IMG/VR virus record: IMGVR_UViG_3300036766_000644 | Coordinates: 1-48,684 of that record | Length of the DNA: 48,684 nucleotides | DNA from: a virus | Reading direction: 5' to 3' (one strand) | Shown here: one piece after another, positions 1,459 to 11,045 of the stretch | How the letters are laid out: every line of letters begins with the position of its first letter | Numbering within the stretch: the first letter of the stretch is position 1 | Translations under genes and position numbers: made by a program | The notes under the pieces: generated by a model | Databases searched by the model: none | Seen by the model: the letters and a program-made list of their open reading frames with translations, nothing else | What the model was told of the DNA's origin: nothing

Positions 1459-2019
1459 ATGGGCTGCGACATTCATTTTTACGTAGAGATCAAGAATGCT
1501 CAGGGCGTCTGGGCGTTGGCCCCGGGGCAGTTGGTTCCATGCGAGCGCTGCGGAGGAACGCAGCTCGACCCGGAGCACAAGCACTGCGGCAACTGTAAGA
1601 AGAAGCTATCGGAGCATGAGCCCGACACGGGGAAGTGCTGGTTTGACTTCACGAAGTTGGACCTCGTTCCGGACCCGTGCAACTACGAATGCCTTGGGGG
1701 GAATCAGCTCACCGATTCGTACTACCCCGGCGGACGAAACTACGAACTCTTTGGCATCCTCTCAGGCGTTCGCACGGACGCTGTTCCCGGATTTACTCAA
1801 GAGAACCGCGGAATGCCTGCGGATCCGTCGCCGGAGCTCGCAAAGGCGTCGCTCGAGCCCGACTGGCACAGCCACACCTGGTACACCCTGGACGAGCTCT
1901 CGGCGCACGACTGGGATCAGCACGAGTACATCAGCGAGTTCCAGGCCGCGCTGGAGAAGATGCGGAAGCTGGCGGAGCAGTACGAGGATGTCCGAGCAGT
2001 GTTTTGGTACGACAACTAA
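1459..2019 (+). CDS. Cys-rich protein, zinc-ribbon family member
   Basis: RBS GGAGGGA. Contains CERCGG and CGNCKKKLSEHEPDTGKCWFDFTKL, which matches the family motif CxxC..H.G..CxF[DE]xT. Confidence 0.55.
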   Translation: MGCDIHFYVEIKNAQGVWALAPGQLVPCERCGGTQLDPEHKHCGNCKKKLSEHEPDTGKCWFDFTKLDLVPDPCNYECLGGNQLTDSYYPGGRNYELFGILSGVRTDAVPGFTQENRGMPADPSPELAKASLEPDWHSHTWYTLDELSAHDWDQHEYISEFQAALEKMRKLAEQYEDVRAVFWYDN

Positions 2020-2030
2020 CCGGAGGGGAT

Positions 2031-2207
2031 ATGATCTTCAAACTGAGAAGTGCGTTGCTGGGTGGGCACGTGCACATCGACGTGTTCGTCGGTCCTGACG
2101 CAGACCACCTGGCCAAGACGGGAACGCTGGTGATGCGGCCCGACGAGGCTGCGTCCTTCGAGAGCAAGTTCTCGTGGGTAGTGTCAGAACGAAAGGAACC
2201 GCAATGA
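2031..2207 (+). CDS. small hypothetical protein (58 aa)
   Basis: ATG at 2031 after RBS GGAGGGGAT. Its stop overlaps the next start (ATGA). Confidence 0.4.
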   Translation: MIFKLRSALLGGHVHIDVFVGPDADHLAKTGTLVMRPDEAASFESKFSWVVSERKEPQ

Positions 2208-2629
2208 GAAGCTGTCCCGTTTGTCGCGGCGAGGGAAAAATCGAAGACGATGCTGTCGTCGGTGTTCTCCCACACCACCCGCCGTTCCTGAAGCAGTTGG
2301 CAGAGGTCATCCCGAACGACATCATGAGCTACATCTTCGGGATTGTCTGTGTGCTGTCCATCGCTGGGCTCATCTACACGGGGATCAGCGGCCCCAAGAC
2401 AGCCGCGGAAACTCCCGAGCTCCAGTGCTCGAAGGCTTGCGGCGGAGGTCCGCGGTTCAAGGCGTACACCTACGAGACTCCGTATTGGACGGAGCCCGAC
2501 GGCACCAAGTTCGGAAAGCATCACCCCTCAGTTCCGGGCCGCTGTGAGTGCGCCACCCCTGAAGCACCCAAGAAGGAGGAAGCAAATGGGACTCAAAGAT
2601 CTACCAATCCTGCCGACGCTGGCGGGTGA
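2204..2629 (+). CDS. membrane protein with N-terminal CxxC and one TM helix
   Basis: ATGA coupling to the upstream gene. Contains CPVCRGEG and the hydrophobic segment IMSYIFGIVCVLSIAGLIYTGI. Confidence 0.45.
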   Translation: MRSCPVCRGEGKIEDDAVVGVLPHHPPFLKQLAEVIPNDIMSYIFGIVCVLSIAGLIYTGISGPKTAAETPELQCSKACGGGPRFKAYTYETPYWTEPDGTKFGKHHPSVPGRCECATPEAPKKEEANGTQRSTNPADAGG

Positions 2630-3020
2630 AGAAGTACGAGAGGGCTACGCCGCTGAGCTCAAGGCGGTAACCAGCCCCACGCTGTTGTGGGAGTTCACCA
2701 TGCGCTGGCGGCCGCTGTACCTGCTGACCCGGAAGCGCCGGATCGGTAAGCAGGAGAAGAACGCAAAGCGTTTCAAGATCACGCAGAAGCACATGCAGAA
2801 CCTCATCAGCGGTACGTGGAACCGCGAGGAAGCGTTCGCCTGCATCCAGGCGAGCCGAGAAGGGGTCTGCAAGCACGCACAGCAGTACTCCTGTGTGGGG
2901 GTGCATATCCTCATTCCGGAGATCCTGCTTCAAGCTGACTTCGTCGCCAAGCAGTTCGGCGTTGGTTCGGACTTGGCACTCATTCAAATGCATGGCGGGC
3001 TGGAGGCCCTCGAGACATGA
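2586..3020 (+). CDS. hypothetical protein
   Basis: ATG at 2586 with RBS AAGGAGGAAG. The longer ORF from 2343 lacks an RBS. Confidence 0.45.
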   Translation: MGLKDLPILPTLAGEEVREGYAAELKAVTSPTLLWEFTMRWRPLYLLTRKRRIGKQEKNAKRFKITQKHMQNLISGTWNREEAFACIQASREGVCKHAQQYSCVGVHILIPEILLQADFVAKQFGVGSDLALIQMHGGLEALET

Positions 3021-3196
3021 GCATCATCGACCAATACGCTGCCCGAGCCAAGAACCGTGCTGCCTGCCGCGCAGTCGCAGATAAGATCCTCGAGTTCGCC
3101 ATGCAACAACTCGATACGGTGGAGCCGTACCAGCAGATACAGGTCCTGAACATGGTCCTGTCAGAAATCCAGATCGCGACGAAGAAGGACCCGTGA
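3017..3196 (+). CDS. small hypothetical protein (59 aa, below ORF-track cutoff)
   Basis: ATGA overlap with the upstream stop. Translates to MSIIDQYAARAKNRAACRAV... The frame is closed by a TGA that overlaps the GTG of the next gene. Confidence 0.35.
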   Translation: MSIIDQYAARAKNRAACRAVADKILEFAMQQLDTVEPYQQIQVLNMVLSEIQIATKKDP

Positions 3197-9043: not shown

Positions 9044-9266
9044 CGACGCGGACTACGGCGATCCGCAGGACGACTTCAACGATTACGACGATGACTTCGC
9101 TGACCCTGGTGGCGGTAGCGCCCTCAGGGCGGAGACCCCGGAGAACCCAAGGAACCTCCCATGCCCCAACTGCGGAACGGAGAACGTGCTGACCCCCAAG
9201 GACCGTGCTCTCGGGTATCAGTGCGACTCCTGCGCTGACCGGGCGGAGCGTGGAGATGCCTACTGA
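9012..9266 (+). CDS. acidic protein with C-terminal zinc ribbon (CPNCG...CDSC)
   Basis: Asp/Glu-rich N-terminus. CxxC-x19-CxxC at the C-terminus. Confidence 0.45.
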   Translation: MSNPGTMEEDDDADYGDPQDDFNDYDDDFADPGGGSALRAETPENPRNLPCPNCGTENVLTPKDRALGYQCDSCADRAERGDAY

Positions 9267-9589
9267 TGGGCCCCTATCGGCCGATCACAGACTGGATGCA
9301 GGTCCCGTCCAGGTTCCCCCCGGACTGGATCCCGTGCTCGAGCTGCCTCAAGCCGCTCGCAGCACACGTCGGCATGAAGTGTCCGTTCGACTCGACGGAG
9401 TTCCGCCCACAGGACGGACGAGAACTGTGGGAGACCTACGACGACGCGTGGAAGATCGCCACGTACGAGTACAAGTGGGCGCACGCCTTCGAGGATCTCG
9501 TCGTGGCGGACAAGGTCCGTTGCTACATGGAAGCGTACAAGAGGCGGCTACTCAAGAAGATTAAGGAAAGGGATCAACGTGGCTACTAA
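9266..9589 (+). CDS. zinc-ribbon family protein (paralog)
   Basis: TGATG coupling to the upstream gene. Contains CSSCLKPLAAHVGMKCPFDSTEF. Confidence 0.55.
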   Translation: MGPYRPITDWMQVPSRFPPDWIPCSSCLKPLAAHVGMKCPFDSTEFRPQDGRELWETYDDAWKIATYEYKWAHAFEDLVVADKVRCYMEAYKRRLLKKIKERDQRGY

Positions 9590-9806
9590 GAAACGAACGA
9601 AGAAAAGTACCCCGCCGCTAAAGAAGTTCAACGTCGAGTTCTGGGGTAAAGCCGACGTAAGCGGAATCATCACGGTCGACGCGCTGGATGAGCAGGCGGC
9701 GCGCGCCGCGGCGTTCGCCCAGTATCAGGATGACGGCATCTATTGGAGGGTCTTGGAAACGCTAGAGAGCTACCCCGTTCGGATCCACAGCGTCGACCCC
9801 GCATGA
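9579..9806 (+). CDS. hypothetical protein (75 aa), GTG start
   Basis: RBS AAGGAAAGGG upstream of the GTG start. Confidence 0.4.
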   Translation: MATKKRTKKSTPPLKKFNVEFWGKADVSGIITVDALDEQAARAAAFAQYQDDGIYWRVLETLESYPVRIHSVDPA

Positions 9807-10339
9807 CTGACCAGAGCTACCTCGTCACGGCGCATAGCAACCAAGAGGGCTACAACTCTGATTGCGACTACTGCGTCGTGGACTTCACGCCGGAGCTCCT
9901 CGAGAAGCTCGCCGCGTGGAAGAAGGCGTTCCAGAAGGTGAAGAAAGCCCTCCCCGACGTGGACATGTGGAGGATCGGCTGCACCAGCGCGACCTTCGTG
10001 ACACGTAAAACCGTAGAGGCTTTCCTCGGGAACAAGCTGTTTGAGGCCATCGAGGAGGATTCGGAGCAGCTTCCGATCAAGATACCTAACCGCGACGACA
10101 TAGATCTGGAGAAACTAGATGCTACAGTGGCTGACGAAGTTTGTATGGGGCCAGCAGGGTTCTGGTTCGAAGGTGTCCCGCGCCACACAGACGGACTCGT
10201 CATCTCAAGCGACTACTTCCCGTGGGCCTGGTTTACTGAGTGCAGTAACTGCGGCCAGCCTCGCGACGTCCACGTCAAAGGAAAGTGTCTCTTCGCCCCG
10301 ACGAAGTACGCTTCGACGACCCCAAGGATAGGCCCCTAA
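9803..10339 (+). CDS. zinc-ribbon family protein (paralog), 178 aa
   Basis: ATGA coupling to the upstream gene. Contains CDYC and a C-terminal CSNCGQPRDVHVKGKCLFAPTKY. Confidence 0.5.
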   Translation: MTDQSYLVTAHSNQEGYNSDCDYCVVDFTPELLEKLAAWKKAFQKVKKALPDVDMWRIGCTSATFVTRKTVEAFLGNKLFEAIEEDSEQLPIKIPNRDDIDLEKLDATVADEVCMGPAGFWFEGVPRHTDGLVISSDYFPWAWFTECSNCGQPRDVHVKGKCLFAPTKYASTTPRIGP

Positions 10340-10713
10340 TGCAACGTTTGAAGGCACGTCTCACGATCGAAGAGTACGGGAGCAGCCGCCTCGGAAGTGG
10401 GGTCTGTAGGGCGTGCAAGAAGCCGATCATCGCGCACATGGGAGAAGAGTGTATGTTCGATTTTACCCAGCTAGACGCTGACCCGCTGGAGCGCATCTTG
10501 GCGGCGTTGTTTCAAGGGAAGCTGCAGAAGGACGCAAAGCTGACCTTGGAGATCATTGGCGGGGCTTCCGTGAGCTACTTGGTCAAAGCCTCCTCGTACC
10601 AGTACACCCTGTCCAACGACCCGCCGTACTACGAACTTGGGCGTCTCAGCCCCGTCACCGGCCGAAGTACAGGCGCGGCGGTAGATATCGAGCTCGTGGG
10701 GGTGGGCGGATGA
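10339..10713 (+). CDS. zinc-ribbon family protein (paralog), 124 aa
   Basis: TAATG coupling to the upstream gene. Contains CRACKKPIIAHMGEECMFDFTQL. Confidence 0.55.
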   Translation: MQRLKARLTIEEYGSSRLGSGVCRACKKPIIAHMGEECMFDFTQLDADPLERILAALFQGKLQKDAKLTLEIIGGASVSYLVKASSYQYTLSNDPPYYELGRLSPVTGRSTGAAVDIELVGVGG

Positions 10714-11045
10714 AGCTCCACGGCAAAAAGCACAGCGCGCGGATCCAGTACCTATTCCAACGCCGGGCGCTGGACCCTTGTGACAACTGCGGCAAGCTTC
10801 AGTCTGAGCACGCCTCCGGCAAGAATTGCCTCTTCGAAGCGACGCTCTTCAAGCCACAAGAGCTCCTCGTCTTCTTCGAGCAGTTACTGAGTAAAGGTGG
10901 CGTACTGACCATCAAAGTGGGGAACCAGTCCCTCATTCAGAAGATCCAGGCGCTCTCGGTGGTTCAGCTCGCAAACAGCCTCTCCGGAGAGATACTCACC
11001 GACGGGGATGCTTACCTTGGAGAGATCGATGCCAAGGAGCGTTAG
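10710..11045 (+). CDS. zinc-ribbon family protein (paralog), 111 aa
   Basis: ATGA coupling to the upstream gene. Contains CDNCGKLQSEHASGKNCLFEATLF. Confidence 0.55.
   Translation: MKLHGKKHSARIQYLFQRRALDPCDNCGKLQSEHASGKNCLFEATLFKPQELLVFFEQLLSKGGVLTIKVGNQSLIQKIQALSVVQLANSLSGEILTDGDAYLGEIDAKER

Follow-up and report, generated by a model that had tools for sequence, protein, structure and literature searches.

Five phage genes carrying one cysteine-histidine module

The DNA analysed here, referred to as the window, is a stretch of 48,684 nt from an uncultivated phage (IMG/VR record IMGVR_UViG_3300036766_000644), and the subject of this work is a small cysteine-histidine module that recurs in five of its genes. 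A six-frame scan with the regular expression C..C.{4,12}H.{2,8}C.F..T returned exactly five matches in the window, all of them on the + strand and each in the coding frame of its own open reading frame (ORF), where the copies take the form C-x2-C-x6-H-x4-6-C-x-F-x2-T. The order Cys-Cys-His-Cys is present in all five, with a Cys-His spacer of six residues in each. The carriers, with their scores under the family profile described below, and the gene lodged among them are the following (aa, amino acids).

1459..2019, + strand: g1459, 186 aa; module at aa 43-65 (nt 1585-1653), 32.1 bits
9266..9589, + strand: g9266, 107 aa; module at aa 24-44 (nt 9335-9397), 55.9 bits
9579..9806, + strand: g9579, 75 aa, non-member between g9266 and g9803; no motif, no profile match
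9803..10339, + strand: g9803, 178 aa; C-terminal module at aa 147-167 (nt 10241-10303), 56.6 bits
10339..10713, + strand: g10339, 124 aa; module at aa 23-43 (nt 10405-10467), 37.8 bits
10710..11045, + strand: g10710, 111 aa; module at aa 24-45 (nt 10779-10844), 48.0 bits

This recurrence of a conserved Cys/His module is real and not a product of chance. The full motif was absent from all of 300 block shuffles of the window, against five occurrences in the real sequence; the bare ligand pattern CxxC-x6-H-x4-6-C occurs five times, where the 300 shuffles yielded a mean of 0.17 each, and a back-translated DNA pattern gave three matches against 0.00 expected. Under the family profile the five copies score 32-57 bits and the next best match in the window 8 bits, the maximum in a control of about 1 Mb of unrelated viral loci being about 9 bits. 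A preliminary description of this DNA had noted that five early ORFs repeat one Cys/His module, and these results bear it out. ORF 386 (CDFCKPGIPCPWC), put forward there as a possible sixth member, matches neither the regular expression nor the family profile and is dropped, and three of the motif strings quoted had been assigned to the wrong ORFs: CSNCGQPRDVH... belongs to 9803, CRACKKPIIAH... to 10339 and CDNCGKLQSEH... to 10710. Spread of the module on a mobile DNA element of recent date was also considered and rejected: the copies are pairwise only about 25-50% identical in protein (BLASTP) and, for that reason, have no DNA repeat in common.

The same description had called the carriers paralogous, with unrelated flanks. 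Pairwise BLASTP does confine the similarity of all pairs to the module of about 23-30 residues; however, the profiles of the g10339 and g10710 orthologues align over 68 columns, reaching some 45 residues past the module (hhalign probability 95%, expectation value E = 4e-8). To judge from these alignments, g10339 and g10710 are a true tandem duplication, paralogous over their full length, and the three remaining carriers are otherwise unrelated proteins having a single portable domain in common. The label of an expanded, diversifying family fares similarly. Expansion is evident, tandem arrays being typical elsewhere, but no sign of unusual diversification was seen: the identity of carrier orthologues (39-78%) is comparable to that of neighbouring genes (38-83%). 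In the orthologues present in the related loci L008 and L067, the ligands are retained and the flanking sequence drifts.

The carriers differ in the setting of the module. In g9266 it bears the sub-family signature [FY]PxW[IV]PCxxC...KCPFD[SA]TxFxP. In g9803 it follows an N-terminal domain of about 140 aa without database match, with the signature WxW[FL]TxCxxC, and is kept in the L008 and L067 orthologues at 39-40% overall identity. A conserved C-terminal domain follows the module in g10339, and in g10710 the His-Cys spacer is five residues long. The intervening non-member g9579 has an orthologue in L008.

The module of g1459 is an insertion into a known protein family. The core of this protein is phrog_10141 (MGCDIH...VFWYDN; profile match, E = 8.5e-26), a widespread phage protein family, whose motifs MGCDIH..., GRNYxLFG, HSH and VFWFDN it contains. 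The module sits in a Cys-rich insertion, with an additional CxxC (aa 27-30) on one side of it and a CxxxC (aa 73-77) on the other. Homologues without this insertion are encoded by Paenibacillus phage Hayley, Caulobacter phage CcrPW and LR756502, an uncultured 642-kb phage; all three have in the alignment a Cys-free sequence where g1459 has PCERCGG...module...PCNYEC, and a metagenomic orthologue (P0027) keeps the Cys-rich insertion. The alignment of g1459 with its cultured-phage homologues contains 25 invariant columns; the insertion with the module is lineage-specific. Concerning the core itself, the family (g1459; loci L085, L086 and L092) has a strikingly invariant N-terminus MGCDIH and C-terminus VFWFDN, and the residues D4, H6, E10, R93, D122, H137, D185 and N186 are invariant across Paenibacillus, Caulobacter and metagenomic phages. 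This core family has no PDB or Pfam match; it looks like an uncharacterised metal-dependent enzyme.

A large family with a constant signature

A profile built from the five window modules, as the preliminary description had proposed, was used for an exhaustive search of 1.84 billion representative proteins, and matched 190 clusters (50% identity) at E <= 1e-3. The median length of the family proteins is 101 aa. The full motif C..C.{6}H.{3,7}C.[FYWLM]..[TS] is found in 141 of the 150 best matches; four others are near-misses (P0025, P0040, P0118 and P0138) in which C, C, H and C are all kept, and about five are repeat-protein false positives. The Cys-His spacer is six residues in 145 of these 150 matches (the 141 with the full motif and the four near-misses), and the His-Cys spacer is four, five or six residues in 124, 21 and 4 copies respectively, the first of these amounting to 83%. 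The four ligands are invariant in the 136 rows of the alignment A4, these rows having been picked by a regular expression that requires the ligands.

The family consensus, about 30 residues long, reads p-C-x-N-C-[GK]-[KQ]-P-x3-H-[VA]-[DE]-G-K-C-[LP]-F-[ED]-[PSA]-T-x-[FY]-x-P. With C1 and C2 designating the first two cysteines, N occupies 67% of position C1+2 and K 72% of the position before the last Cys; past the last Cys, L reaches 85%, F 97% and T 93%, and an aromatic residue (F, Y or W) stands at T+2 in 93%. Positions C1+1, C2+1 and C2+2 and the one preceding the last Cys are often basic, and acidic residues are conserved at H+2 and F+1. The module is dipolar, with its basic residues around the first knuckle. 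Two outliers, P0117 and P0126, contain three to five tandem repeats of a related pattern, C-x2-C-x6-H, to which P0117 adds x5-C; the L-F-x-x-T tail is missing from both. Pfam gives no match for P0117 and only a sub-threshold zf-dskA_traR for P0126, and these repeats may be remote relatives of the module or have arisen by convergence.

Distribution among uncultivated phages

A scan of IMG/VR with a degenerate DNA pattern returned 19 loci, the true ones coming from five contigs, four of them large (168-194 kb) and one of 36 kb. Three of the four large contigs are syntenic with the window, with identities, for example, of 78% for a metallophosphoesterase, 75-85% for g10339 and 61-65% for large structural-like proteins. 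A protein identical to g10710 is encoded on public contigs, one of which is 188,569 bp long; on this account, the window is probably about a quarter of a phage genome of some 190 kb. In the loci fetched, at least 13 distinct modules were counted in one relative (190-kb contig) and at least 9 in another. A further array was found on L084, a 194-kb contig unrelated to the window, with which the stretch fetched has no other detectable gene in common.

1280-14380 of L084, + strand: 13 consecutive small genes of about 90-150 aa each, all carrying the module

A stricter DNA pattern, applied to JGI and other metagenome contigs, retrieved 31 stretches, all 31 of which are true members, and contigs of 1-5 kb often contain two to seven copies. 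The same stricter pattern had no match in GTDB, where 185,579 species of bacteria and archaea were covered by a single genome each. Three GTDB matches to a looser pattern were rejected as chance-like: the expected number was about four, one of the three is interrupted by in-frame stops and another is an ordinary C4 ribbon. A tblastn search with the consensus module found nothing in 50,697 GenBank phage records. The family clusters come only from JGI, ENA and Logan, where the sole name given is 'hypothetical protein'. On present data, the family is therefore confined to uncultivated phages, on metagenomic and viral contigs. Other searches were less productive. A word-indexed protein search, which needs three shared 5-mers, rare for such short modules, returned almost nothing with the five-module alignment, one match with the 136-row alignment and two near-identical orthologues only with g9266; a related-locus search gave nothing for g9803 and weak C-terminal matches only for g10339. 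The phage lineage itself is very distant from cultured phages, and a megablast of 12 kb of the window against GenBank phages found no match.

A portable domain in unrelated proteins

The module occurs in stand-alone carriers of about 60-130 aa, in pairs, and as a fused or inserted part of proteins from at least five unrelated families. Among the best 150 matches, eight proteins contain two modules (P0001, P0002, P0004, P0009, P0010, P0014, P0015 and P0095). Beside the insertion in g1459, the module forms the C-terminal end of DUF1281_C/Api92-like proteins, where it follows a C4 ribbon (39.8 bits, cut-off 22.8). It also stands midway along the proteins of a family of about 200 aa marked by 'GRSGGWLV' and, in many members of the L084 array, behind a 'vGDxV...G.V' N-terminus whose sequence suggests a small SH3/KOW-like barrel. 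One protein of the DUF1281_C/Api92-like type, of about 214 aa, is encoded at L115 2277-2921, on the contig of L008, and consists of a ferredoxin-like domain, a C4 ribbon and the C-terminal module; such proteins recur on many sediment metagenome contigs (L096-L101, L107 and L111). P0001 (222 aa; L091 8001-8669) combines two modules with the DNA Pol A signature peptide STGRLSSSQPNLANIP and no other part of a polymerase. Its gene lies in a replication module, next to Prim-Pol and VapE-like genes, and the protein may be what is left of a polymerase, or else an accessory factor.

The module is thus portable, spreading both by tandem gene duplication, as in g10339/g10710 and the L084 array, and by domain shuffling. 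Such promiscuous contexts are expected of an autonomously folding, portable module.

Relation to known metal-binding families

The module is absent from the family libraries searched (Pfam, NCBIfam, PHROG, PADLOC and PDB) and is unnamed and previously undescribed; searches of the literature yielded nothing on its motif or spacing. In Pfam-A, four carriers have no match at all and g1459 has only sub-threshold ones, to Zn_ribbon_3 and DUF6011. When the 136 module segments were compared with Pfam at a threshold as lax as E <= 1, three members at most matched any one family, and the full-length members drew incidental matches only in Pfam, PHROGs and NCBIfam. PADLOC defence models recognized no family in the five carriers and four neighbours. 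Searches of PDB sequences with the profiles A4, A6 and A7 gave nothing below E = 0.09, with only the CxxC knuckle aligning (A4). The preliminary statement that the motif is not a named family has accordingly survived every one of these comparisons.

The two sub-threshold matches of g1459 constitute the sole support for a rival explanation, namely that CxxC pairs recur here by chance or that the module belongs to an already characterised family. Zn_ribbon_3 (PF13248; cut-off 27 bits) is matched by g1459 alone, at 11.8 bits and E = 0.17, over its extra CxxC at aa 26-50. DUF6011 (PF19474), a short, CxxC-containing family of unknown function, is matched by g1459 at E = 0.25 (11.3 bits against 26.6) and by 2 of the 136 members (best E = 0.018); the CxxC knuckle alone aligns, the H...C-L-F-x-x-T half of the module falling outside the match. 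Against this stand the shuffles devoid of the motif, the 190 clusters drawn by a profile of only five sequences and the negative results of Pfam, NCBIfam, PHROGs and PDB, and the explanation is effectively refuted.

The 'zinc ribbon' of the preliminary description was right as to a Cys/His module but loose as a label, since a single CxxC is followed by H-x4-6-C, a CCHC arrangement closer to a zinc knuckle. Genuine phage C4 ribbons (Zn_ribbon_3, Lar, Ogr/Delta-type and A2L ribbon) are, as is predicted for the module, tiny metal-stabilised beta-hairpin folds found in small phage proteins, and in g1459 and the DUF1281 fusions the module adjoins or nests within a genuine CxxC...CxxC pair; its second half-site, however, is H-x4-6-C and not a second CxxC knuckle. 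The closest resemblance is to zf-CCHC (PF00098), the pattern of which is CX2CX4HX4C. Both have the Cys-Cys-His-Cys order and a CxxC knuckle often followed by G-K, the four-residue His-Cys spacer of zf-CCHC is that of 83% of the copies, and the two are alike in size, in tandem occurrence and in their use as portable modules. On the other hand, the Cys-His spacer is six residues in the module instead of four, an extension [LP]-F-[ED]-x-T-x-[FY]-x-P is obligatory at its C-terminus, it lacks an aromatic residue at C1+1 and is charge-neutral, and it is known from phages alone, not from retroelements or eukaryotes. PF00098 was not matched by any of the five carriers at E <= 1, nor is it among the families shown for the 136 segments. 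The family is best read as a new CCHC knuckle-like mini-domain lying outside zf-CCHC (by spacing and by model), the C4 ribbons and DUF6011.

This resemblance raises the question of a nucleic-acid-binding zinc knuckle, which would bind single-stranded DNA or RNA like the retroviral nucleocapsid protein or Lin28, the carriers having a regulatory or accessory part in replication, transcription or translation. The ligand order of zf-CCHC, the first half C-x-N-C-G-K, the H-x4-C spacing, the frequent basic residues at C1+1, C2+1, C2+2 and ahead of the last Cys, and the existence of tandem doublets all speak for it. So do the barrel-like plus knuckle proteins of L084, which recall cold-shock-domain plus knuckle proteins, and the carrier P0001 with its Pol A motif and its Prim-Pol and VapE neighbours. 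This explanation is nevertheless judged unlikely, given the silence of PF00098, the longer Cys-His spacer, the acidic residues conserved at H+2 and F+1 with a net charge near zero, and the want of a conserved aromatic at C1+1.

Three Cys and one His could also form a site for something other than zinc, either an iron-sulphur (Fe-S) cluster of the mitoNEET-like 3Cys-1His type or a redox or metal sensor. Ligand sets of 3Cys-1His bind [2Fe-2S] in other proteins, and 'H-x-D-G-K-C' superficially resembles CDGSH. The CDGSH/mitoNEET motif is C-x-C-x2-[ST]-x3-P-x-C-D-G-[SAT]-H, though, and on direct reading its ligand order and spacing differ from those of the module; no CDGSH match is found among the top Pfam families. 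Moreover, structural Zn sites typically combine a CxxC knuckle with a tight hairpin, and many carriers are fused to other C4 ribbons, all of which makes an Fe-S or sensor site very improbable.

Predicted structure

A 40-residue segment was modelled by AlphaFold2 with the 136-row alignment, at a mean predicted local distance difference test (pLDDT) of 81.8 and of 88-91 in the core. The model consists of short beta bridges and one helical turn bearing the His. For full-length g9266 the mean pLDDT is 82.2 and the predicted template modelling score (pTM) 0.73, with the module at about 90; a disordered N-terminus is followed by the confident module and by a two-helix hairpin (helices 51-68 and 80-106). 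The module is therefore predicted, with confidence, to be a small beta-hairpin knot, for which no structural relative was found.

Gene organization around the carriers

Four of the carriers belong to a run of tightly packed genes. From 9266 to 11045 the successive stop and start codons overlap (TGATG, ATGA, TAATG, ATGA), which suggests translational coupling, and independent gene calls on public contigs give the same ORF boundaries. The preliminary description had placed four carriers in one coupled run, and the overlaps are real, but the run also includes the non-member g9579. The following features were located around these genes.

1403..1436, + strand: terminator-like hairpin, strong, 13 pairs, loop CAGAACATCG, directly upstream of g1459
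8458..8474, + strand: terminator-like hairpin directly upstream of g8566 (consensus scan)
5798-6624, + strand: transfer RNA (tRNA) genes Thr-TGT, Leu-TAG and Gln-TTG
5798-6624, - strand: tRNA genes Ile-AAT and one with an irregular anticodon loop

Strong terminator-like hairpins of the + strand, at 1403-1436, 7783-7814, 8083-8103, 8276-8292 and 8458-8474, delimit units before g1459 and g8566. Two of the five have the identical loop CAGAACATCG, and the three smaller ones a CCGTAG(Y)GG core; allowing one mismatch, the loop 10-mer is found 14 times in the window, where 3.4 would be expected. From 8458-8474 to 11045 the + strand contains no further hairpin with more than four G-C pairs, a weaker one lying at 10483-10504. 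As no strong + strand hairpin interrupts the sequence from 8566 through 11045, the four clustered carriers probably share a single transcription unit.

At a larger scale, these carriers belong to a block of small + strand genes (1-13.6 kb) that is transcribed away from the large genes on the - strand. The arrangement is compatible with an accessory or pre-structural transcription unit; no excess of sigma-70-like promoters was found. The cluster of five tRNA genes (5798-6624) lies inside the small-gene block. The gene directly upstream of g9266 (8856-9266) encodes a very acidic N-terminus and then a classical C4 zinc ribbon (CPNC...CDSC), a different Zn motif outside the module family. It is kept in L008 (6710-6961), and its true start is probably internal, near the Met of MSNPG.... 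ORF 584-1135 contains a short tandem KKAS repeat, present four times (KKASKKASKKASKKA), in a lysine-rich linker. On the - strand (13619-48684), the large proteins of 376-927 aa are almost all without Pfam or PHROG match, the exceptions being a weak head-maturation-protease match in 41916-43871 and a match to a PHROG of unknown function in 13619-14779.

A candidate recognition scaffold

The reading considered the most probable, with fair confidence, is that of a phage-restricted, CCHC knuckle-like mini-domain, probably stabilised by Zn2+, which is portable and serves as a scaffold for ligand recognition or docking. One metal ion, most probably Zn2+, would be coordinated by the CxxC knuckle, by the His and by the last Cys, with which the tight hairpin (H-V-D-G-K-C) closes. 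The conserved L-F...T-x-[FY]-x-P segment would fold back to complete a tiny hydrophobic core, the outcome being a rigid knob that folds on its own. Variation from copy to copy affects the position following the first Cys, the three preceding the His and those around the Thr, and could provide a surface that differs in each. The module would thereby act as a recognition or docking scaffold in accessory, non-structural genes of a clade of uncultivated phages of about 170-190 kb. As its partner, a protein is slightly favoured over a nucleic acid.

Several points weigh against this proposal. The assignment of a metal site is drawn from the sequence. Foldseek comparisons with the PDB returned nothing significant (E >= 3.9), the top non-significant matches being mostly Zn mini-domains (TFIIH subunits, RanBP2-type fingers, LIM, HscB and LapB). 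The net charge of the module is about 0 (mean +0.13, standard deviation 1.8) and gives no verdict either way on nucleic-acid binding. Finally, nearly all of the conserved residues other than the ligands are explicable as structural, with no conserved binding surface evident, and for this reason the domain could be a pure folding aid without a common ligand.

The constancy of the module among such varied proteins also evokes a common docking tag, by which effector tails of different kinds would be brought to one hub (RNA polymerase, protease or replisome), the carriers acting as adaptors in host takeover or anti-defence; this sharpens the idea of the preliminary description, which had likened the family to a host-takeover or anti-defence arsenal. 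The union of one constant domain with many unrelated variable parts, the multi-copy tandem arrays, the position of the carriers in a small-gene + strand block with tRNAs, divergent from the large structural-like genes, and the restriction of the family to phages are all consistent with such a role. In genome behaviour, an analogy may be drawn with the ankyrin/F-box and BTB families, whose expansions are known in poxviruses and giant viruses, and in which a constant domain likewise accompanies variable partners in tandem multi-copy; their fold is unrelated, however, and the hosts of the module phages are bacteria or archaea. The absence of any match to the defence-related models of PADLOC, the divergence of the orthologues at no faster rate than their neighbours, the apparently structural rather than interfacial nature of the conserved residues and the N-terminal, internal or C-terminal position of the module, even inside enzyme-like proteins, speak against a docking tag, and it is regarded as a somewhat unlikely alternative. 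In a more specific form of this idea, all carriers would dock on one same hub by means of a phage 'address' domain, and each genome, with 5 to more than 13 such genes, would possess a modular toolkit; this version is distinctly doubtful. Were it true, it would constitute the bacterial-virus counterpart of the F-box/BTB expansions, and large phages would be shown to take over their hosts by a new principle.

The recognition scaffold thus remains the preferred interpretation. A tiny, predicted metal-binding domain with many copies per genome and at least five unrelated partner families behaves as a general-purpose recognition module. Its description adds a new and readily searchable domain family of at least 190 clusters at 50% identity, and provides a first handle on dozens of blank small ORFs in the uncultivated phage clade of about 170-190 kb. 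The size of 30 residues and the high predicted confidence make it tractable for nuclear magnetic resonance, crystallography and metal analysis. Knowing what it binds would allow an entire class of accessory phage genes to be annotated together, and would put to the test the existence of constant-domain, variable-tail toolkits in large phages.

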